Shown here one piece after another: positions 2,236 to 14,004 of a stretch of 64,000 nt of DNA. The stretch is from Escherichia phage AV111. The notes beneath the pieces were generated by a model that searched no databases, was not told the DNA's origin, and was given only the letters and a program-made list of their open reading frames with translations. Location of the stretch: sequence record OR352941.1, one strand, 5' to 3'. The position numbers and the translations under genes were made by a program. Each line of letters starts with the position of its first letter. Positions within the stretch are counted from its first letter, which is position 1.

Positions 2236-2311
2236 TAATCATGCATGTCCAACCAATACAGCCAAATCACTAGTGCAGCTATTGCACCGAGAAATCCTAA
2301 GGCTAGGGCAC

Positions 2312-3637
2312 TCAAAGTGCCTCCAAGTCTTTAGTGTACTCTGTCACAACATCAGTAGACTTCCAATACTCATTTTCTTCTTTCTTAGCTTTAGCTTCTT
2401 CTGCTAGTTTACGTGCTTCATCGGAAGTGATATGGAAGATGTTAAGACCTACCAGTTTATCGACATGTTCTTTATACATTTCGATTTGTGCTAGCTCTTC
2501 AGTCAAAGCTTTACGAGTCTTGCCCTGAATCACAATTTCGCCGCTGATAACTTTTTTGATGAAGTGTGCCTTAGCAAAAGCAAGTTTAAATGCTTTTTCA
2601 GATTCAATGATTTTGTTATCAATACGTTTCTGAACGTAAGTCTTACGGACTTCAACAAAATCTTTGATTAAGTCCACTACGTTATCATAGACCGCTAATT
2701 TACCCTTTTCATTAATCACTGTGATGTTTTGTGAACGACGTTCTATGAGACTAAAATCTTTCATGATTTTTTCATGACGTAGCTCTTCATCATCAGGAAG
2801 CGAGTACTCTTTACGGAACTTCACCTTAAACCCAAAGCCGTGTTCACCGCAATCATCTTCCCATGAGATTAGACCTTTGTCTTCCAACGGGTCAAGAACC
2901 TTACTCACATACGTTTCACGGTCGAATTTATATGGGATTTCAGTTATCTGCATTTGAGTGCGAGATGTGAACTTATATGTTCCGTGAATCTCATAACGCC
3001 CATCAACTTCATGTACTTCACCACGGAATTCCGGGAATTCAACTTTTGGCTTAGTGACATTTTTACCTTGAAGAGCTTGTAATACAGCCTTTTTTACCGA
3101 TTTAAAACTATGAGGCAGAATATTTGTTGCGTAACCGGTTGCAATACCAGAGACGCCATTCAAAAGAACTGTCGGAATAATAGGAAGATAGAATTTTGGT
3201 GGAATGTGTTCTTTATCTTCATGAGCTGGAGCATATTCAGTATCTTTATATACGTTATAGAAATTTTTACTTACACGAGCAAAAATATAACGAGATGCTG
3301 CAGCTTTTTGGACTGTTCGAGAACCAAAGTTGCCTTGGCCATCTAACAGTGGATAGTTGTTGTTCCATGTGTTAGCCATCAATGCACCTGCATCTTGTGC
3401 AGAAGATTCACCATGGTGATAACCTAAATCTGCAACACCGCCTGCAATTGACGCAAGTTTATGAAATTTTTCTTTATTGCCACGAGCCAAATCTAACGCA
3501 CGATGAACCACAAAACGTTGAACCGGCTTAAATCCATCAATCATGTTTGGGATTGCACGGTTTTCAACGGTGTACATCGCATATGCTAAGGCTTCGTTAT
3601 CAATAATACTTTTTAGATTACGAGAATTCAATTGCAT
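2312..3637 (-). CDS. 52: DNA topoisomerase II medium subunit gp52
   Basis: 441 aa; GyrA-like; matches T4 gp52 length and synteny. Confidence 0.9.
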   Translation of the reverse strand: MQLNSRNLKSIIDNEALAYAMYTVENRAIPNMIDGFKPVQRFVVHRALDLARGNKEKFHKLASIAGGVADLGYHHGESSAQDAGALMANTWNNNYPLLDGQGNFGSRTVQKAAASRYIFARVSKNFYNVYKDTEYAPAHEDKEHIPPKFYLPIIPTVLLNGVSGIATGYATNILPHSFKSVKKAVLQALQGKNVTKPKVEFPEFRGEVHEVDGRYEIHGTYKFTSRTQMQITEIPYKFDRETYVSKVLDPLEDKGLISWEDDCGEHGFGFKVKFRKEYSLPDDEELRHEKIMKDFSLIERRSQNITVINEKGKLAVYDNVVDLIKDFVEVRKTYVQKRIDNKIIESEKAFKLAFAKAHFIKKVISGEIVIQGKTRKALTEELAQIEMYKEHVDKLVGLNIFHITSDEARKLAEEAKAKKEENEYWKSTDVVTEYTKDLEAL

Positions 3638-3782: not shown

Positions 3783-3928
3783 TACTCGCCTTTTAACACG
3801 TTAAAAAGAGCTAAGACCGCTAAGGTGCCTTGTGATACGGCCTGTTGAAATACCGTTGTTTCGCCTGTAACTAAAGTGTTAACGAATAAAAACGACCAAC
3901 ACAACAATGCAATAATCCATGATACCAT
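3782..3928 (-). CDS. small hydrophobic protein (48 aa)
   Basis: GAGGT RBS; stop overlaps the next ATG (TAATG). Confidence 0.4.
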   Translation of the reverse strand: MVSWIIALLCWSFLFVNTLVTGETTVFQQAVSQGTLAVLALFNVLKGE

Positions 3929-4764: not shown

Positions 4765-4875
4765 TTAAATTACATTAAAATATGTTAAAGCCAACCATGT
4801 TCCAGTGAACGAACATGCAATGTAAAAACCAGTATCACAAATTGTTCTTAGTACAATAAGAAGTGCATTTTTCAT
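4765..4875 (-). CDS. tiny hydrophobic protein (36 aa)
   Basis: ATGA overlap with upstream tiny ORF; GAGGT RBS. Confidence 0.3.
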   Translation of the reverse strand: MKNALLIVLRTICDTGFYIACSFTGTWLALTYFNVI

Positions 4876-4958
4876 AAGTACCTCAATGCAATTGAAAATA
4901 TTATACAAATCATAGGGATACTAAGCAACCATATTCCAATCCACATTTTAGAGCTCAT
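4872..4958 (-). CDS. tiny hydrophobic protein (28 aa)
   Basis: ATG overlaps stop of ORF 4955..5218 (ATGA). Confidence 0.3.
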   Translation of the reverse strand: MSSKMWIGIWLLSIPMICIIFSIALRYL

Positions 4959-5218
4959 ATCTCAACTTCCGCGAGTTCCATATATCCTTTGTTGATAACC
5001 TCTTTAAGGTCTTTAGAAAGAATGACATTAAAATGGTCGTTCATATGTCCATTAACTAAACGAGTTATTTCGGCTTCAGATGACATATAAGGCACGTCCG
5101 AGTCCCAATGAGATAGACCCAAATGGGTATAAATCATCCCTTCGTCGTCTGCAGTGTTGTACATTGAAACAAATTCGCCTGTTACTTTATGTTTTGCGTA
5201 GAAAAATTTAAATTTCAT
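4955..5218 (-). CDS. hypothetical protein (87 aa)
   Basis: ORF in track, ATG start, own promoter. Confidence 0.5.
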   Translation of the reverse strand: MKFKFFYAKHKVTGEFVSMYNTADDEGMIYTHLGLSHWDSDVPYMSSEAEITRLVNGHMNDHFNVILSKDLKEVINKGYMELAEVEI

Positions 5219-5244
5219 GATGTTATCCTCTTTTAGATAGGACT

Positions 5245-5274
5245 ACTATATCATAGTCCTACTTAGTTGTAAAC
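5245..5274 (-). promoter_or_regulatory. early promoter (-35 GTTTAC, 18 nt, -10 TATAGT) with AGGACTA/TAGTCCT repeat around the -10
   Basis: read from sequence. Confidence 0.5.
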
Positions 5275-5286
5275 ACTTTTATGAAA

Positions 5287-5844
5287 TTAAAGATGAAGAT
5301 ACCACCCGTTGTAGTTGCTCTTGCGGACGATTTTCTTTAGGTCTTCATGGTCTCCCACGAACTTTATAGAATAGGAGAAGACGTCAGGTGAGGTTTCTTT
5401 GACATCTAATATAATAATGCAATCTGCGACTCGATGGTTCAAGAAGGGCCCTATATTGATTCCATTACCACCAGGATAATCACCACTGTATCCTGTGGTA
5501 ACCGAAATCCATTTAGAATCTATCTGGTGCGTCTTGACTTCGACACGCAACCCGCAATATTTAGGATGAGCTAACACGTCCCATGCATACGTGTACGGGT
5601 CTTCTACGTCTTCAATACCTTTATTAACATATCCATCTAGCCAATTTGCTACTACATACTCTGCAAAGACCGCAACCTTACAACGTCGAACAACGTCTTC
5701 TTTTATTTGACCTGGATCTTGTTTCAACGAGTACCGAGCAGTATCAGCGATCTTAACCTTCATTTCGCTAGTCAAAAACTCATTCGACAGGATAAATGTC
5801 GGAAGACTCTTCAGCCTCAACAGCCCCAAGTTCGTCTTTACCAT
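5287..5844 (-). CDS. denB: endonuclease IV DenB-like
   Basis: track ORF is 206 aa; internal ATG at 5844 with AGAGG RBS gives 185 aa, the T4 DenB length; synteny between ndd and rIIB. Confidence 0.7.
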   Translation of the reverse strand: MVKTNLGLLRLKSLPTFILSNEFLTSEMKVKIADTARYSLKQDPGQIKEDVVRRCKVAVFAEYVVANWLDGYVNKGIEDVEDPYTYAWDVLAHPKYCGLRVEVKTHQIDSKWISVTTGYSGDYPGGNGINIGPFLNHRVADCIIILDVKETSPDVFSYSIKFVGDHEDLKKIVRKSNYNGWYLHL

Positions 5845-7053: not shown

Positions 7054-9267
7054 TTATTTGGCCGCTTCCACGGCCTTCATGAATTTAACGATTTGAGCGA
7101 CCTGTTCTTTGGAAAGAGTACCACGTCGTCCCATGTATTCTGACACAATATGATAATTGGTTTCGAATTCAATAACCATTTTATCATCATTATCGTAAGC
7201 ATTATCTTTAAGCTTATCGAAAATTTTAGCACACAATTCTAACTTCCTGTTCAGGTCTCTGTTATCAGCGCCTGCGAATCGATTCCATCCCCAGCGATTA
7301 TTTACTGTTGAGAGTTTTGCAAAGTCTTTACTGATTTCTTTGTTCTTAGAGCTAAAATACTTACTAAGGAAGTTAAGCTCTTCATTACGAGTAATATGAT
7401 TCAAATAAGGCTGTGCTCTACGACTTGGTGATACATACTCATCATAATCTACTTTATCGATTAGCATAATATAGTCATTAATTGATTTTTCAAACAAGCA
7501 TTCTACTTCACCAAGTTTACGAACTTTCTTAGCAATCTGTGGGCGAACTACAGTGAACTCTTTAATACCTGACAAATCGGCAATACGAGTCAAGAAACTA
7601 GAATCATAGTTCAACCAACCTTTATCTGCGTCAAGACATTCGGCGTTAGAACGATTACGAATTACAACATAACCTTGAATCTCATCAGCTTTACCGGCCG
7701 GAATAAAGAGATCTTCTGATACCCAAACATCGTTTTCATTCTTAAAGAACCGATGAGCACTTGGGGATTTAGGACGAGGTTGCGATGAACGTTCTTTAAC
7801 TTCAATCCACGGTTTAACTAATGCAAGAATTTCAGAGGTCTTATAAAATTTAAGGCTATCACCAGCGAAAATAACCTTTAATCGTTCCAGAAGTTTCATT
7901 GCAACTTCATCTTCCGGGTTAATGAATAATACGCTACTACCCCGTCCGGAAGGAACCTTATCAACGAGTGTTGATGCATCTGTGGAAGTCAAAGCATCGT
8001 TCAGAGCACGCATCATGGGTACGCGGCCTTTCACATCGTCAATAACAATATCAATATGCTTACGACTAATACCTAGCAGGCTATTAATTGAAATAGTTGC
8101 AGACGAGCTTCCGCTTTCACGAATACGACGAAGTCGTGGGTCTGAAACGATATCGTATACAACACCAAGGTTGCACCATTCAGGTCCCATTTTAAAACGT
8201 TTGTACAACTCGGAATAAGTTAGTTGTTCTTTAGAGTATTTCAGTGATTCAATATTAGACCCGGCTTTTTCCATGTATTTACGAGCAGAGTAACCAAGAG
8301 AATCGATTTCACGGAATACATGACGTGGATATTCACAATCAATCCATTTCTTAGAATCTTCAGCAAATAATTTTGCATCGATTTCTGCAACGCGTTTATG
8401 GATATTTGCTACTGTACGTTTATCAAATGACAATGCTTCACGAGACGGGGCTACATCTAGTTCACCCATAGGGAATTTAATATAAGCTGTAGTGCATCGC
8501 GTCATCATCCATGTTTGTTCTTTAATAACACTTCCAATTGGATATACAATACCACCGTAAACAGCCATGATATTACCACGTTCACCCCATGGAGCTTCCT
8601 TGGCCAAATATACATCGTCAAATTCAGGGAAGTATTTAATATCTTTAACACCACGAACTTCTGCAATATCACCTAGAGGACGCATAACATATGCAATTTC
8701 GGATGCGAACTTTTCAAAATCTTCTGGGTTAACAGGCACAACTACTTCAACGCCGGTCCGGTCATCAGGACCCATCTTATCTACAAAGGTCGGCTTAATT
8801 TGTGGACCCGTGTCATCTTGGTAGATTACGTAACCACGAACTTCGCCGTTGTGATAAGACGTAAGGTTAAACGTATCGGTATATGCTAGCGGAGCTTTAG
8901 AGCCGAGTCCGAATCCACCAATGAAATCGTTACTCGATGTTTTAGTTGAAGCAAAATATGAGTTATAGATTCCTGGCTCTTCGTCATTACCTCGAATGGT
9001 GAAATCACTCATACCAGGACCAAAGTCTCGAACTACAAAACGTGGGTCTAAACGACCTGGAGCCTGAACAATAAACTTATCAGTGCAACCATTAAGAATT
9101 TGTCCATCAATACAGTTTGTGATTAATTCACGTACACAAGCCAATTCTTTGTTTGTATAAAGGTCGTTAGACAAAATCTTATAAACTTTGCTATTGCCTT
9201 GAATAGTGAATGCTGTGCTCTTACCGCCTGAACCAATAATCGTTTCTTTAGCCGTTTCAATAATCAT
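7054..9267 (-). CDS. rIIA: rIIA protein (GHKL ATPase-like N-terminus)
   Basis: 737 aa; synteny and N-terminal similarity to T4 rIIA. Confidence 0.92.
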   Translation of the reverse strand: MIIETAKETIIGSGGKSTAFTIQGNSKVYKILSNDLYTNKELACVRELITNCIDGQILNGCTDKFIVQAPGRLDPRFVVRDFGPGMSDFTIRGNDEEPGIYNSYFASTKTSSNDFIGGFGLGSKAPLAYTDTFNLTSYHNGEVRGYVIYQDDTGPQIKPTFVDKMGPDDRTGVEVVVPVNPEDFEKFASEIAYVMRPLGDIAEVRGVKDIKYFPEFDDVYLAKEAPWGERGNIMAVYGGIVYPIGSVIKEQTWMMTRCTTAYIKFPMGELDVAPSREALSFDKRTVANIHKRVAEIDAKLFAEDSKKWIDCEYPRHVFREIDSLGYSARKYMEKAGSNIESLKYSKEQLTYSELYKRFKMGPEWCNLGVVYDIVSDPRLRRIRESGSSSATISINSLLGISRKHIDIVIDDVKGRVPMMRALNDALTSTDASTLVDKVPSGRGSSVLFINPEDEVAMKLLERLKVIFAGDSLKFYKTSEILALVKPWIEVKERSSQPRPKSPSAHRFFKNENDVWVSEDLFIPAGKADEIQGYVVIRNRSNAECLDADKGWLNYDSSFLTRIADLSGIKEFTVVRPQIAKKVRKLGEVECLFEKSINDYIMLIDKVDYDEYVSPSRRAQPYLNHITRNEELNFLSKYFSSKNKEISKDFAKLSTVNNRWGWNRFAGADNRDLNRKLELCAKIFDKLKDNAYDNDDKMVIEFETNYHIVSEYMGRRGTLSKEQVAQIVKFMKAVEAAK

Positions 9268-9279
9268 ATTTTTCTCTCA

Positions 9280-9480
9280 TCACAAGTTACGTTTAAAAAT
9301 TTCTGCTACTTCAAGAAGTTCTTCTTTAGTAGCTGTATCGGTTTGTATTTTATATCGAATTTCCTTAAAGCGTTCTTTAAAGGCTTCAGCTGATTCGATA
9401 TCAAAAAATCTTTGGATAAGCCGGAATTCCCGGAGCACTGCTTTATCAAAAAGTTCCAAGTCCACGTTATACGTTCTCAT
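9280..9480 (-). CDS. hypothetical protein (66 aa), rIIA.1 position
   Basis: ORF in track, GAAGAG RBS. Confidence 0.5.
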   Translation of the reverse strand: MRTYNVDLELFDKAVLREFRLIQRFFDIESAEAFKERFKEIRYKIQTDTATKEELLEVAEIFKRNL

Positions 9481-9505
9481 AATATTCTCTTCAGTAGATT
9501 CCTAG

Positions 9506-9556
9506 GGCACTATTACTAAAGACCATATAATTTATCATCTTATGTGTAATAGTGCC
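9506..9556 (-). promoter_or_regulatory. perfect 11-bp inverted repeat GGCACTATTAC/GTAATAGTGCC with a 29-nt loop containing a TATAAT-like element
   Basis: seen in sequence between glycosyltransferase gene stop and ORF 9280..9480 start. Confidence 0.4.
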
Positions 9557-9572
9557 TCAGGCGATTCAGGAT

Positions 9573-10673
9573 TTACGCTGTGAAGATTTTATCCCACATC
9601 GCAACAACTGCATCTCGATTATACTTCTTCCATACTGCTTCAGCACGTTTAACTCGAGCTTCGTATGTGTCAGTGAATTCTAATACAGCTTTTGTGTAAA
9701 GCGCAACTACTTCTTTCTTAGGAGTAGAGGAATCAATTTCTACACGCACAGTATCTGGGTCGTATTCGAATGTCGCATGAGGATAATCCTTAAAAACTAA
9801 CTGGATTACAGGGACACCTTTAGAAATGGCTTCAATAGAACTATTCTCTACCGTACCTGTGTCAGGACACGTATTAATAAGTGCTTTAGCTGTTTTAAGA
9901 CGTTCCATGATTTCACTGTGTGGAGCATCAATAATAACAGGATATTTAGCTGGTGGTGCCCATTTGCTTGGACAATAACCAATACCATTTTCGCCTAGTG
10001 CTTTAATTGCTTCAAGAGCAACATCAGTGCGACGCATCTTAGTGTCATAACGTTGAGCACTAATAATCAAATCAGTTGCCGGGAGAACTTCTGGCTTTTC
10101 AGACAAACAAATAACCGGGTAGTCATCAGGTTCAAATAATGGATTTTCGCGCCAGTAGTCATAATCAATTTTGTCAGTCAGACCTGAAGTCATATAACAA
10201 TATTTGCGTTCAAATTCACGGAAGGCTTTAGTAGGAGCATAGCTCTTCCCGCCGTTCTTGTGAATCTGGATAGTCTGATCCCAAATTTGAACAATACCAC
10301 GAGACACCGGTTCAAACGGCGTAGCCATAAAATTCTTATGAACTTTAGAGAGTCCAGCATCTTTAATTGCCTGAACGGTTAGTTTAGTCGGTTCCATAGT
10401 AACAACAAAATCGTATTCATGGATGCCGGCTAGTTCAACAATCTTACGAGCCATAGTATAACTCATACCTAGACTGAATTTAGTCAGATGACCAACAGGA
10501 TGATGATTAACCTTCCAATCACCAAACGTGTCATTATCAAAGCCGATATAATCAATATCAGCACCGATGGACACAAGATATTTCAACACATTTAAATGTA
10601 CTGCTTCAAGACCACCTTGTACACGGTCAGGATTAAATGGGACTGCACGAGATGGGATAAACATAACTTTCAT
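9573..10673 (-). CDS. GT-B fold glycosyltransferase-like protein; candidate DNA (hydroxymethylcytosine) glycosyl/arabinosyl-transferase
   Basis: 366 aa; C-terminal motif TGTVENSSIEAISKGVPVI resembles the GT4/GT-B donor-binding motif; lies next to rIIA where the proposed RB69 arabinosyltransferase maps (recollection). Confidence 0.55.
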   Translation of the reverse strand: MKVMFIPSRAVPFNPDRVQGGLEAVHLNVLKYLVSIGADIDYIGFDNDTFGDWKVNHHPVGHLTKFSLGMSYTMARKIVELAGIHEYDFVVTMEPTKLTVQAIKDAGLSKVHKNFMATPFEPVSRGIVQIWDQTIQIHKNGGKSYAPTKAFREFERKYCYMTSGLTDKIDYDYWRENPLFEPDDYPVICLSEKPEVLPATDLIISAQRYDTKMRRTDVALEAIKALGENGIGYCPSKWAPPAKYPVIIDAPHSEIMERLKTAKALINTCPDTGTVENSSIEAISKGVPVIQLVFKDYPHATFEYDPDTVRVEIDSSTPKKEVVALYTKAVLEFTDTYEARVKRAEAVWKKYNRDAVVAMWDKIFTA

Positions 10674-10699
10674 AATTAAGCCTTATTAAAATTAAAATG

Positions 10700-10717
10700 A
10701 AGCTCCCGAAGGAGCTT
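10700..10717 (-). terminator. terminator-like hairpin AAGCUCC-UUCG-GGAGCUU overlapping the HNH gene stop
   Basis: 7-bp stem, UUCG loop, U-rich tail. Confidence 0.55.
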
Positions 10718-11513
10718 AGGACATCCAACACATTTTATAACCTTTGCAGGTTCTGTTAGGATTATTTAATGCTTTCAATATATTAGAAGACCCTATATCT
10801 AAATACTCTCTTAATTCATAAAGATAGTTAAAATCAATAGTTTCACCTGTTTTTACACTTGTGATTCTTATAGGCCTTCTTTCATATTTAGATTTATACA
10901 ACTCTCTAGTCTTAGCTTTAGTTTCTTCTGACCTAGGAGTGTATGGTTTAAATCCTTTTGTTTTAAATGTTTCCATTCTTGATTTAGTTATTTTATCCCG
11001 GTGTTCTTTTGTTTTTACAGGTGCTTTTCGCCCATTCTCCCGAGATAACTTGTTGGCCTGTATTATTTTATCTATTGCTTCTTGCGTATGAGTTTTACCA
11101 TAAAATGGATTTAATTCGCCTATACGTTGTGAAGCAATATGTGACATTAATTCTCTTGTTGCTTTAGTATGTTTTTTACCTTTAAATGGGTTGCCATTTT
11201 TAGCAATCCATTCTTTCATAAATCTAGAGTGCTCTTTAGAGAATTCTTGTTTAAGCCAATCATAATCTCTAGAATTTCTAGCTCCCATGTAAAAAGCTCT
11301 AATAGCCATAAGCATAGAACGGTTCTTATGAATTTTATAAAGCAATAAATGGGCGATAAAATGCTCTCTAGGGGTCATTTTAACTAGATTTGATTTAGCA
11401 TTACTCCCGCCCATAGATTTAGGCAAAATATGGTGAGTTTCAGTATAATTAGGAATAGTGCTGCGGTTTTTAGCCGCAGCGATAAGTTTATCATAAATTT
11501 TACGATAATTCAT
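10716..11513 (-). CDS. HNH homing endonuclease (Mob-like, NUMOD repeats)
   Basis: HHILPKS...NLV..T..EH HNH motif; ATG at 11513 overlaps gene 39 stop (TAATG); track ORF start is an upstream alternative codon. Confidence 0.8.
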   Translation of the reverse strand: MNYRKIYDKLIAAAKNRSTIPNYTETHHILPKSMGGSNAKSNLVKMTPREHFIAHLLLYKIHKNRSMLMAIRAFYMGARNSRDYDWLKQEFSKEHSRFMKEWIAKNGNPFKGKKHTKATRELMSHIASQRIGELNPFYGKTHTQEAIDKIIQANKLSRENGRKAPVKTKEHRDKITKSRMETFKTKGFKPYTPRSEETKAKTRELYKSKYERRPIRITSVKTGETIDFNYLYELREYLDIGSSNILKALNNPNRTCKGYKMCWMS

Positions 11514-13333
11514 TATCCTAGCATCCAATCTTTACGGAGTTCAGGGTCGTTACCCATGAGCATTTCAAATAGTTCTTTCCAATTTTCAGGAAGTTTAACT
11601 ACGTCGTACACAGGGTTTTGAATCATTTCTTTATATTCATCTCGCTGAAGTGAGCCCAATCCCTTGATGTATCGAATACTATGCTTAGGCAGTGTATCTT
11701 TAACTTCTTCATACTCAGCTACAGTATAAAACCATTTTTGAGTTTTGCCAATTTGTGCAATAATTACAGGCGTTTTAACAAAGCGAATACGTCCTTGTTC
11801 AAACAATTCAGGCCAATTACTAAAGAAAGCAAGCAAAGCCGGATAAATGCTTCCAAGACCGTCATGATCGGCATCGGTCATAATTGCAATATTACGATAG
11901 TTCGTATTCTCTGCCTTTTCACCAAGAATAAGACCTGTGATAGCACAGATATCAAAGAGCTCTTTGTTCTTCATCATATCAGCATATGACATACCCCAGC
12001 TATTCATCACCTTACCACGTAATGGGAATCCGCCGTGTAGTTCACGGTCACGAACATCAATGAGATAACCAATTGCCGAATCACCTTCTGTTAAGAACAA
12101 TGTTGTATCTGCATCTTTACCACATTGGTTAGCTTTAATATGCTTATGAACCTTAGCTTTAGTTGCCTTTTTAGCTGCTTTAGTTTCTGCAGCCTTTTCT
12201 GCTGCCAATTTACGAGCTAATGCTGCTTCAACAATAGGCATAATCAAGGCTTCGTTTTTAAGAAGTGCCTGAGCAATTTTCTTAGCATCTAATTGGATAT
12301 GATTACGAATATCACCATACGTTGACGTTAAACGTTCTTTAGTCTGAGAATCAAAACGCATGTTGCTCATGTCTCTAATAAACATCAACATTGTGAGACA
12401 TTCTTTAACACGAGCTTTAGTGACTTCAATACCCTTATATTTCTTTTTAATACCTGGCAAAAGATGTTCGCAGATATCATCCATTACGCATTCAACATGA
12501 TGACCGCCGTTTTTAGTATGGATGTTATTCACATAAGTTAAATGACGGAAGCCATCTGGTGATGTTGTGAATGCTATAGAGACTTTATCATTTTCTTGAA
12601 TGATGTTATCTTCACCAAATTGTTTAGCAAATCGTTTAAAATTACCATCAACCTTTTTACCATTAAATGTGAACTTGATATCAGGATAAACGACTGCCAA
12701 TGTTTGAAGTCGATCTAAAGTAATATCTAAATAAATTTGAGATAAATTATGCTCTTCAAATGAAGAGAAATCAGGAGTGAAGATTACTTTAGTGCCTTTA
12801 CATTTAGATTTCTTAGAAGACCATGATTTGTTTTCCATTCCGTTTGAACAGTTAACAGTGATTTCATTTTCGCCATCTGACGTGATGCCTGTAAACAACG
12901 TAGAGAAGATATTAGTTAAACTACTCCCGACGCCGTTCATACCACCAGTCTTGCGTTCAGAATCATCACCAAAGTTACCACCAGCCTTTGGAATAGTCCA
13001 GGCTGCTACAGGCCCAGGAATTTGTTCACCTGTTTGGTCGGTAACTAAACCTTGAGGAATACCACGTCCGTTATCTTCCACCGAAACTTGATTATTTTTA
13101 ATTTGCACGTCAATTTTATTTGCAAACTTAAATGATGTACGAATAGCTTCATCAACCGAGTTGTCAATAATCTCATCGATTAATTTAACCAGACCAGGAA
13201 CATATTCAACTTGTTGATATTTACCAAACAAAAAACGCTCGTGGGCTTCTTTGGCCGAAGAACCAATATACATGCCACTACGTTTCTTAATATGTTCTAC
13301 ATCTGACAGTACCTTAATTTCATTTTTAATCAT
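11513..13333 (-). CDS. 39: DNA topoisomerase II large subunit gp39 (fused 39+60 ORF)
   Basis: 606 aa GyrB-like; MIKNEIKVLSDVEHIKKRSGMYIGSS matches T4 gp39; single ORF covers the region split into 39 and 60 in T4. Confidence 0.93.
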   Translation of the reverse strand: MIKNEIKVLSDVEHIKKRSGMYIGSSAKEAHERFLFGKYQQVEYVPGLVKLIDEIIDNSVDEAIRTSFKFANKIDVQIKNNQVSVEDNGRGIPQGLVTDQTGEQIPGPVAAWTIPKAGGNFGDDSERKTGGMNGVGSSLTNIFSTLFTGITSDGENEITVNCSNGMENKSWSSKKSKCKGTKVIFTPDFSSFEEHNLSQIYLDITLDRLQTLAVVYPDIKFTFNGKKVDGNFKRFAKQFGEDNIIQENDKVSIAFTTSPDGFRHLTYVNNIHTKNGGHHVECVMDDICEHLLPGIKKKYKGIEVTKARVKECLTMLMFIRDMSNMRFDSQTKERLTSTYGDIRNHIQLDAKKIAQALLKNEALIMPIVEAALARKLAAEKAAETKAAKKATKAKVHKHIKANQCGKDADTTLFLTEGDSAIGYLIDVRDRELHGGFPLRGKVMNSWGMSYADMMKNKELFDICAITGLILGEKAENTNYRNIAIMTDADHDGLGSIYPALLAFFSNWPELFEQGRIRFVKTPVIIAQIGKTQKWFYTVAEYEEVKDTLPKHSIRYIKGLGSLQRDEYKEMIQNPVYDVVKLPENWKELFEMLMGNDPELRKDWMLG

Positions 13334-13355
13334 GTTGTCTCCTCGTTATGAAGGT

Positions 13356-13380
13356 ATTCTATCATCCGAAATCTAAAGCA
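13356..13380 (-). promoter_or_regulatory. MotA-dependent middle promoter for gene 39 (MotA box TGCTTTA, 12 nt, -10 TAGAAT)
   Basis: read from sequence; fits the T4 middle promoter pattern. Confidence 0.55.
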
Positions 13381-13384
13381 AAAA

Positions 13385-13395
13385 GGGCCGAAGCC
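13385..13395 (-). terminator. short GGC-UUCG-GCC hairpin plus U5, downstream of ORF 13397..13822
   Basis: seen in sequence; weak stem. Confidence 0.4.
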
Positions 13396-13396
13396 A

Positions 13397-13822
13397 TTAT
13401 TTAAATTTAATTTTCTGAAGTGCATCAATTGCAGCCAGGCGCCCTTGTTCACTTTTAACTGTAATGACCACATCGCCTGATACGATCACCGAACCATCAA
13501 CAAATTCTATAGAGCCTTTTTTGAAATCGACAGCTGTATCTGGTTCCTGAACTTCTTCAAAGAATTTAAATTCTGCACCATAAAGCATAATATCACCTTG
13601 CATACTATGAATAGTTCGGCCATAATCGCCTACGGCTTCTACAGCAATAACCGAAACACCGTAACCAATCATCTCTTCCACAATAAAATCTTTGGACAAT
13701 AAAGTAGTATGCAGATTAGTATTAAGACGTTTACCAGTTGTATTAAGAATTCTCAAGAAATTATCTTCCTGCCCTTTGATAATACGATATTTCTTACCAA
13801 CTTCAAAACCTTTAAAAGCCAT
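13397..13822 (-). CDS. hypothetical protein (141 aa)
   Basis: ORF in track, ATG start. Confidence 0.5.
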   Translation of the reverse strand: MAFKGFEVGKKYRIIKGQEDNFLRILNTTGKRLNTNLHTTLLSKDFIVEEMIGYGVSVIAVEAVGDYGRTIHSMQGDIMLYGAEFKFFEEVQEPDTAVDFKKGSIEFVDGSVIVSGDVVITVKSEQGRLAAIDALQKIKFK

Positions 13823-13824
13823 AA

Positions 13825-14004
13825 TTAACCCTTCTTAAGTAAGTCGTAAAAACCACCGTTCACATGTTTAGGAGCAGAAACCCGACGAGTAGACAGACGA
13901 TGACATTCAGGGCAAACATCGTTTTCTCGTTCAGAAATCCTTTTAATTTTTTCATATTCATGTCCGCAATCTTCAGATTGGCATTTATAGTCGTATAACG
14001 GCAT
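13825..14004 (-). CDS. FmdB-like zinc-ribbon protein (59 aa)
   Basis: [18 protein letters not shown]...CPEC; ATG overlaps upstream stop (TAATG); below ORF-track cutoff. Confidence 0.55.
   Translation of the reverse strand: MPLYDYKCQSEDCGHEYEKIKRISERENDVCPECHRLSTRRVSAPKHVNGGFYDLLKKG

Follow-up and report, generated by a model that had tools for sequence, protein, structure and literature searches.

A predicted HNH homing-endonuclease cassette within the last codons of the fused topoisomerase gene 39 of an RB69-like phage

Introduction

What is the endonuclease-like open reading frame (ORF) that directly follows the topoisomerase gene 39 of Escherichia phage AV111 (sequence record OR352941.1), how did it come to lie there, and how has an essential gene remained whole beside it? 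The stretch of DNA analysed, hereafter the window, comprises 64,000 nucleotides (nt), and all genes at this locus are read from the minus strand. A sequence-only reading had described the ORF as an HNH homing endonuclease translationally coupled to gene 39, inserted as a discrete unit between gene 39 and a glycosyltransferase gene and closed by a terminator of its own. Here, the boundaries of the unit were established by comparison with related phages, which place it inside gene 39. The ORF is most likely a Mob-type HNH homing-endonuclease cassette as known from T4, free-standing and without a promoter of its own, belonging to a lineage specific to the 3′ end of the topoisomerase II large-subunit gene.

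Results

Boundaries of the insertion in gene 39

The features that define the insertion are as follows.

13333..11513, minus strand: gene 39, topoisomerase II large subunit, a single fused ORF of 606 amino acids (aa), equivalent of T4 gp39 plus gp60
11513..10716, minus strand: HNH homing endonuclease ORF (HNH ORF) of 265 aa, ending CWMS*, identified by phrog_655, NUMOD3 and the annotation of relatives
11521..10722, minus strand: insertion of 800 base pairs (bp), CTAGGATAATG...TGTTGGATG, from comparison with insert-free relatives
10716..10721, minus strand: TCC TAA, the ancestral last codon and stop of gene 39, now those of the endonuclease ORF, from insert-free relatives
10690..10717, minus strand: intrinsic-terminator-like hairpin with a 7-bp stem, a UUCG loop and a T-rich tail, from a terminator scan and RNA folding

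The discrete unit proposed earlier proved to be an 800-bp presence/absence polymorphism, the exact edges of which were obtained from the related phages; the locus measures 5501 bp in a carrier and 4701 bp in an insert-free relative. The string TTGGATG is present at both edges (11528-11522 and 10728-10722), and the boundaries may slide by 6 nt. In the insert-free Mosigviruses AlbertHofmann, JK45, RB69 and SHSML-52-1, gene 39 ends in CGT AAA GAA TGG ATG TCC TAA, and its TAA sits in a hairpin identical in place to that of the HNH ORF. The insert sits within gene 39, ahead of the last codon (after codon 604), and not in an intergenic position next to the glycosyltransferase gene as had been supposed. 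The end of gene 39 is thereby altered from EWMS* to DWMLG*, two replacement codons and a stop (LG*) being brought by the insert itself, and the terminal codons in the window read TGG ATG CTA GGA TAA, of which the last (11515-11513) is the stop.

The hairpin, AAGCTCC-TTCG-GGAGCTT at 10717..10700 followed by CATTTTAATT, was found by the terminator scan, reproduced by RNA folding and is annotated as a terminator in phage fPS-90. It overlaps the stop codon of the HNH ORF (TAA at 10718-10716) by 2 nt, and to this extent the sequence-only reading was right, but the stop and the terminator are not the ORF's own. Because insert-free gene 39 ends TGGATG TCC TAA-hairpin, both originally belonged to gene 39, and the hairpin is the terminator of that gene in insert-free phages, reused by the HNH ORF.

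Gene 39 was confirmed as one 606-aa ORF, with no gene 60 and no bypass element, by alignments with T4 gp39 and gp60 and by DNA alignment. Its protein has GyrB/ParE-type ATPase and Toprim domains (Pfam, NCBIfam); residues 1-474 are 79% identical to T4 gp39, and residues 473-604 match T4 gp60 in two pieces flanking the 50-nt coding gap of T4. In the DNA alignment this 50-nt bypass is an insertion, at about 11862/11861, without counterpart in the window, in T2 or in any of the Mosigviruses. The fused gene is the usual state among T4 relatives, and the RB69 record names it '60plus39'.

The protein encoded by the inserted ORF

Two regions of the protein are assigned to function.

11349..11441, minus strand: HNH catalytic core, residues 25-55 (E-T-HH...GG...N-LV...EH..AH), from alignments, a PDB profile match and a structure model
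11061..11201, minus strand: two NUMOD3 DNA-binding motifs, about residues 105-151, from Pfam NUMOD3

The ATG of the HNH ORF (11513-11511) shares one base, the A, with the stop codon of gene 39 in a TAATG overlap (CTAGGATAATGAATTAT), in agreement with what had been read from the window before. The span given in that reading, 10716-11528, is correct at its lower end, while 11528 is an upstream in-frame TTG of the maximal ORF; in related phages the gene is annotated from the ATG, which corresponds to 11513..10716 and 265 aa. We regard the ORF as genuine and not a chance ORF, because its product matches PHROG 655 'homing endonuclease' (phrog_655, E=5.6e-55) and NUMOD3 of Pfam in two stretches (E=1e-9), and because tblastn with the protein gives matches in 1113 phage records.

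When the protein was aligned with T4 MobB-E and two MobA-type proteins, to which it is 29-37% identical with the identity concentrated in residues 1-70, the residues E25, H27, H28, G35, G36, N42, H51 and H55 were invariant. They form the pattern M-N-Y...E25-x-H27-H28-I...G35-G36...N42-L-V...H51..A54-H55 in the first ~60 residues. N42, H51 and H55 are invariant also in 46 database homologues, and across both alignments the conserved HNH residues H27, H28, N42, H51 and H55 vary little or not at all, none of the catalytic residues being missing. Together with phrog_655 and NUMOD3 these residues uphold the identification of the ORF as an HNH homing endonuclease. In the structure model, residues 25-62 adopt a beta-beta-alpha arrangement (strands 25-28 and 43-46, then a helix at 48-62), and a profile built from aligned Mob-type sequences matches the HNH domains of solved PDB proteins. 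The same profile search of PDB did not reach I-HmuI, and a single-sequence phmmer search of PDB with the HNH protein gave only a marginal match to the HNH domain of McrA. The Mob-type HNH is a divergent subgroup within the HNH superfamily. The C-terminal half seems to resemble the DNA-binding region of I-TevI-type endonucleases, a sub-threshold match (NCBIfam TIGR01453, whole-protein 2.8e-11, best stretch residues 111-253, below the curated cut-off). The product is predicted to have nicking or cleavage activity.

Relatives of the protein and its separation from MobA

The only full-length relatives of the HNH protein are three metagenomic proteins (P0002, P0003 and P0004; 41-46% identity), each encoded directly after the topoisomerase large-subunit gene in a T4-like contig. 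The adjacent topoisomerase genes encode 606-607 aa in two of the contigs, and the third is cut at the contig end. Two of the three relatives overlap the topoisomerase stop codon (GTGA, ATGA), which brings start/stop overlaps to three of the four lineages. In one contig, L020 (SRR21291448), the relative's ORF is followed by a leftover native gene 39 end, LRKEWMNQ*. Directly upstream of its topoisomerase gene the same contig carries an ORF of 235 aa (1144-1851) in which Pfam recognises an Endonuclease VII domain (2.9e-17), and the topoisomerase gene has nuclease genes on both sides, the downstream one encoding P0002.

Similarity to the T4 Mob proteins, from all of which the HNH protein is about equally far, is limited to the nuclease domain. 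Identity to T4 and T4T MobA is 53-61% over the first 45-71 residues. The match to T4T MobA extends over 71 aa and scores 87 bits, whereas true MobA proteins match one another at 169-192 bits and members of the protein's own group at 139-216 bits. The true MobA proteins (T4T, Thanatos-1 and AS-gz) form a separate group; their genes occupy the known split site and are followed by gene 60. MobA elements are described as inserting only at codons 466-473, together with a bypass cassette (Manning and Atkins, bioRxiv 10.1101/2022.08.31.505936, with reference to older work on MobA homing). The HNH insertion site is about 130 codons further downstream, with no added terminal extensions, and alignments with T4 revealed no gene split, no 50-nt bypass and no full-length orthology to MobA. 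Both elements are present together in phage CJY920 (PQ349265.1, 51000-56500, locus L028), a record flagged UNVERIFIED.

712-2265, 2243-3061, ~3177 and 3574-4368 of L028: features of the topoisomerase-associated endonuclease region of CJY920

This genome has an intact MobA, 99.6% identical to T4T MobA, a 50-nt bypass hairpin in gene 60, and a window-type HNH protein (99.2%) encoded directly after gene 60. Judged by these comparisons, the HNH protein is not MobA, and its full-length relatives appear to form a separate lineage at the 3′ end of the fused topoisomerase gene.

In Thanatos-1 (L013, 3798-4326) and AS-gz (L014, 3821-4317) the annotation divides the gene 60 equivalent that follows the MobA-type gene into two short ORFs, which is consistent with unannotated bypass cassettes of the Manning and Atkins type.

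Distribution among Mosigviruses and the linked gene 39 allele

The 4.5 kb around the HNH ORF are 97-98% identical to RB69-like Mosigvirus phages (phi25-307, phiE142, phiC120 and p000v). With this 4.5-kb stretch as query, 144 records were covered to at least 80%, the insert-free matches covering 82-83%, and among these ~144 RB69-like records the insert is carried by 19 of those listed. The HNH protein is found at an identity of at least 98% in 27 phage records, where it is annotated 'homing endonuclease', and almost all of these records, like the window, have the ORF intact. Eleven tblastn records in the 60-80% identity band, outside the best 60, were assumed to be short local matches.

The 3′ end of gene 39 in carriers is an allele distinct from that of insert-free Mosigviruses.

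11522..11651, minus strand: element-associated allele of the gene 39 3′ end, with two substitution clusters relative to insert-free Mosigviruses

The first cluster (11651-11619) reads QRDEYK in carriers and EKSEYR in insert-free phages, and the second (11551-11528) reads NDPELRKD and DDSELRKE, respectively. Gene 39 is 96-100% identical to that of AlbertHofmann and JK45, but only 85-88% over the last ~200 bp, and the stretch that distinguishes carriers from non-carriers is the final ~140 bp. The divergence is one-sided: immediately beyond the insert, the downstream sequence is 98-100% identical to insert-free Mosigviruses.

Other forms of the junction were found in phages that lack the 800 bp. 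In NHEP36 (~1650-1660 of its locus) the sequence GATTGGATG TCC TAA forms a clean TGGATG|TCCTAA join, which looks like either an exact loss of 800 bp between the repeats or the site before insertion. In LF82-4 (~1650-1680 of its locus) and OLB35, both read directly, the insert is replaced by the 19 nt CTTGGTTAATTGATAGATG within the same outer boundaries, and the same filler is inferred for TH12, phiEC1, TH58 and CCU7 from match extent and region length. The 19 nt resemble both ends of the 800-bp insert. Their derivation from it as one clean deletion was rejected, as one indel and four substitutions are needed; the 19-nt allele is either an old deletion scar or the allele of a first insertion.

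At the opposite end of gene 39, phage AV116 has a 227-aa ORF (4830-5513 of its locus, minus strand) with three NUMOD3 motifs (Pfam 8.7e-12) that overlaps the gene 39 start. Identity of its gene 39 to the window is no more than 62-80% in the 5′ ~1.1 kb and 98-100% in the 3′ part. This looks like a second endonuclease-type insertion with a divergent tract of its own.

Transfer into Tequatroviruses

The cassette has also been found outside the Mosigviruses, and three further features are of importance here.

11522..11930, minus strand: gene 39 stretch transferred along with the cassette, from identity to Tequatrovirus carriers
10673..9573, minus strand: putative hydroxymethylcytosine (hmC) arabinosyltransferase gene, 366 aa, homologue of RB69 ORF003c and so annotated in relatives
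10625..10673, minus strand: first 49 nt of the putative arabinosyltransferase gene, carried along with the cassette, from the Tequatrovirus junction

Five Tequatrovirus genomes contain the window-type cassette, namely fPS-90, F1, BYEP01, FL12 and CJY920. Relative to the first four, gene 39 of the window is 60-80% identical up to ~11930, and from there the identity is 95-100% through the terminator. The transferred tract is Mosigvirus-like, with 92-94% identity against about 78% for native Tequatrovirus sequence. The upstream crossovers lie at different points in the five genomes, between about 11927 and about 11846, a pattern to be expected if homologous repair later spread the cassette within the genus. 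The downstream side was read in fPS-90, F1, BYEP01 and FL12, and these have one common junction: past the terminator, the first 49 nt of the arabinosyltransferase gene of Mosigviruses run into the final 26 nt of native gene 39, TTCGTAAAGAATGGATGAGCCAGTAG, with a CTGACC microhomology at the join. Since the four genomes share this junction, the data point to a single transfer from Mosigvirus to Tequatrovirus, with an illegitimate join on the side without homology. The placing of the unit relative to a glycosyltransferase gene in the sequence-only reading is not sustained by these genomes: the Tequatrovirus carriers have no such glycosyltransferase gene, and the association is with gene 39.

In the same four genomes (L006-L009, ~3840-3915), 16 arabinosyltransferase codons are fused in frame to the gene 39 remnant; the 24-codon ORF so formed (MKVMFIPSRAVPFNPDLRKEWMSQ*) is probably meaningless debris.

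Proposed expression and homing

The late-promoter motif TATAAATA does not occur in 9200-13600, and two scans gave no clear promoter match inside or just upstream of the HNH ORF, where sigma-70-like matches were weak and fewer than in shuffled sequences. Two MotA-box-like strings lie within the HNH ORF according to the promoter scan. Upstream of gene 39, ~49 nt from its ATG, a MotA-box-like string TTTGCTTTA is located at 13382 (minus strand), which is a pattern match only, and a predicted middle promoter is recorded at the corresponding position in the annotation of fPS-90. Because neither a late-promoter motif nor a clear promoter was found directly upstream of the ORF, the cassette would probably be transcribed along with gene 39 from the promoters of that gene.

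The AGGA of the HNH ORF lies only 2 nt from its ATG, a poor spacing for independent initiation, and the UAAUGA junction of gene 39 and the HNH ORF, TAATGAATTAT, is identical to that of T4 nrdA/mobE. The overlap in T4 has been read as translational coupling that keeps endonuclease levels low (PMC2988022). Translational coupling of the HNH ORF to gene 39 may reasonably be inferred, and ribosomes ending gene 39 would then translate the endonuclease at a low level. An AU-rich stem covers part of the AGGA and the A of the AUG, and was not relied on as a hairpin sequestering the ribosome-binding site since it is weak (z = -2.2).

In a mixed infection the enzyme would nick or cut the 3′ end of a naive gene 39. 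The best candidate target is probably the naive 3′ end around CTTCGTAAAGAATGGATG, a sequence shared without change by the naive alleles of Mosigviruses, T2 and T4, whereas all carriers read CTCCGTAAAGATTGGATG. At its 5′ edge this 18-mer lines up with both the Tequatrovirus junction and the point where the gene 39 remnant of contig L020 begins. Repair by recombination from a carrier genome would copy in the cassette together with the resistant allele, as in intronless homing.

Neighbouring genes

The order of transcription is 141-aa ORF, gene 39, HNH ORF, the 366-aa putative arabinosyltransferase gene, rIIA.1 and rIIA, all on the minus strand. The 141-aa ORF upstream of gene 39 occupies the position of T4 goF and has no name in common with goF in related records. 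The 366-aa product was not recognised by Pfam or NCBIfam, and neither a group I intron nor any other Rfam family was found in the window at 9000-14000.

9480..9280, minus strand: rIIA.1 (Pfam T4_RIIA1, 3.7e-30)
9267..7054, minus strand: rIIA, the next gene after rIIA.1

Phage JK45 has an additional ORF of 136 aa (1074-1484 of its locus, minus strand) between rIIA.1 and the arabinosyltransferase gene, which gave no Pfam match and is missing from the window and from AlbertHofmann. The JK45 record is filed as a Tequatrovirus, and its locus is about 97% identical to Mosigviruses.

Discussion

The properties of the HNH element are those of the T4 Mob type. It is free-standing and promoterless and overlaps the upstream gene (no Rfam family, TAATG); it has a Mob-type N-terminal nuclease domain and a distinct C-terminal DNA-binding region; and it is present or absent among close relatives with co-converted flanks. 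Taken together, the polymorphism, the linked allele and the transfer make up the standard signature of intronless homing, as described for the T4 seg and mob genes (PMC2988022).

A number of observations weigh against an active homing element. The Pfam HNH_4 match of the protein is below the cut-off (16.7 against 22 bits, E=0.0073), and a Foldseek comparison of the model with HNH structures gave no significant match (E about 0.3). The tblastn match is split in two in AV118 and ECO111 5-P, which may indicate decay, and the carriers, at least 98% identical to one another, are too alike to gauge selection on the ORF. The literature yielded no cleavage activity, target site or homing cross for the HNH protein. 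The carrier-type gene 39 allele is also present in seven insert-free phages; because phages free of the endonuclease carry it too, the divergent tract should not be assumed to be purely an immunity allele, and could instead be the allele of the sub-lineage that was first invaded.

Some of these observations suit an element that no longer homes. A decaying or inactive former homing endonuclease, spread as a passive passenger by ordinary phage recombination, has a precedent in T4, whose own mobA is a pseudogene (Manning and Atkins). The two records with a split ORF point in the same direction, and a cycle of gain and loss predicts allele-bearing phages that are free of the endonuclease. We nevertheless find this explanation unlikely, since a full 265-aa ORF with every catalytic residue is retained both by the window and by almost every one of the 27 records, and since entry by a microhomology join into a genus with flanks of 60-80% identity is explained more easily by a targeted break than by general recombination. 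An enzyme that is domesticated and mainly serves the phage, e.g. by cutting the DNA of competitor phages or of the host (marker exclusion), is more improbable still. Expression with an early/middle replication gene, as its position suggests, would suit action on co-infecting genomes, and competitor exclusion and homing share one cleavage event and are indistinguishable in these data. The distribution is, in contrast, patchy (about 13% of close relatives), apparent loss variants exist, no partner gene is conserved, and what the closest relatives have in common is one target gene, not a defence context.

It is hardly credible that the element is simply MobA moved to a new position. The target gene is the same and the N-terminal residues are related, but the similarity is confined to the HNH domain, with bit scores well below those among MobA proteins or within its own group; the bypass cassette and terminal extensions are lacking at a site so far downstream, and CJY920, albeit in an unverified record, has both elements. 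A homing-endonuclease cassette of the Mob type thus stands as the preferred reading of the HNH ORF.

Among known systems, T4 MobE, located between nrdA and nrdB, is a close parallel. Both are promoterless cassettes with an identical start/stop overlap, UAAUGAAUUAU, with an upstream essential gene, the N-terminal nuclease domains (MNY...HHI..GG..NLV..EH..AH) are 53% identical over 76 aa, and intronless homing with the target in the neighbouring gene is established for MobE and proposed for the HNH element. The target gene and the C-terminal DNA-binding region differ, and whereas MobE is intergenic and active by experiment, the HNH element lies within the last codons of its host gene, reusing the stop and terminator, and its activity is predicted from sequence. 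With the MobA element it shares the host gene, the HNH superfamily and a Mob-type N-terminus, a recent and repeated invasion of related phages, and an element-encoded divergent replacement of displaced host coding sequence (homR in MobA, here the 3′ end of gene 39). MobA, unlike the HNH element, splits Topo2L into 39/60 at codons 466-473. The HNH element leaves the gene unsplit at codon 604/605, has neither bypass nor added N- or C-terminal extensions, encodes a protein that clusters apart and coexists with MobA in CJY920. It differs also from I-HmuI of SPO1 (PDB 1U3E), an intron-encoded HNH nicking enzyme, in that no intron was detected and the identity is about 11-18%.

Homing endonuclease genes are routine in T4-like phages and the finding of one is no surprise; GenBank records of relatives already label the ORF 'homing endonuclease', and the genome paper of phiC120 mentions it in one line. 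We found no paper that describes the insertion site, the lineage or the cross-genus transfer of the HNH element. There is, in our judgement, an even chance that the element and its metagenomic relatives represent a second, hitherto undescribed lineage of HNH homing endonucleases that target topoisomerase, one that invades the extreme 3′ end of an essential gene, keeps the gene whole by replacement codons and a reused stop and terminator as an alternative to the splitting and bypass of MobA, and appears active enough to have moved DNA of arabinosyl-hmC (ara-hmC) Mosigviruses into glucosyl-hmC Tequatroviruses. Independent of MobA and directed to the same essential topoisomerase gene, such a second lineage would illustrate a simpler invasion that does not break the coding sequence, and the naive and carrier alleles supply a concrete 18-bp candidate target. 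The fossil in the Tequatroviruses, ~400 bp of Mosigvirus gene 39 and 49 nt of arabinosyltransferase, gives direct evidence at the sequence level that genes have flowed between RB69-like and T4-like phages, two groups between which classical crosses had suggested no recombination. An absence of gene exchange between RB69 and phages of the T4 type has been reported (Thomas et al. 2018, PMC6024577), and in view of this report the cross-genus fossil is the most notable part of the finding.

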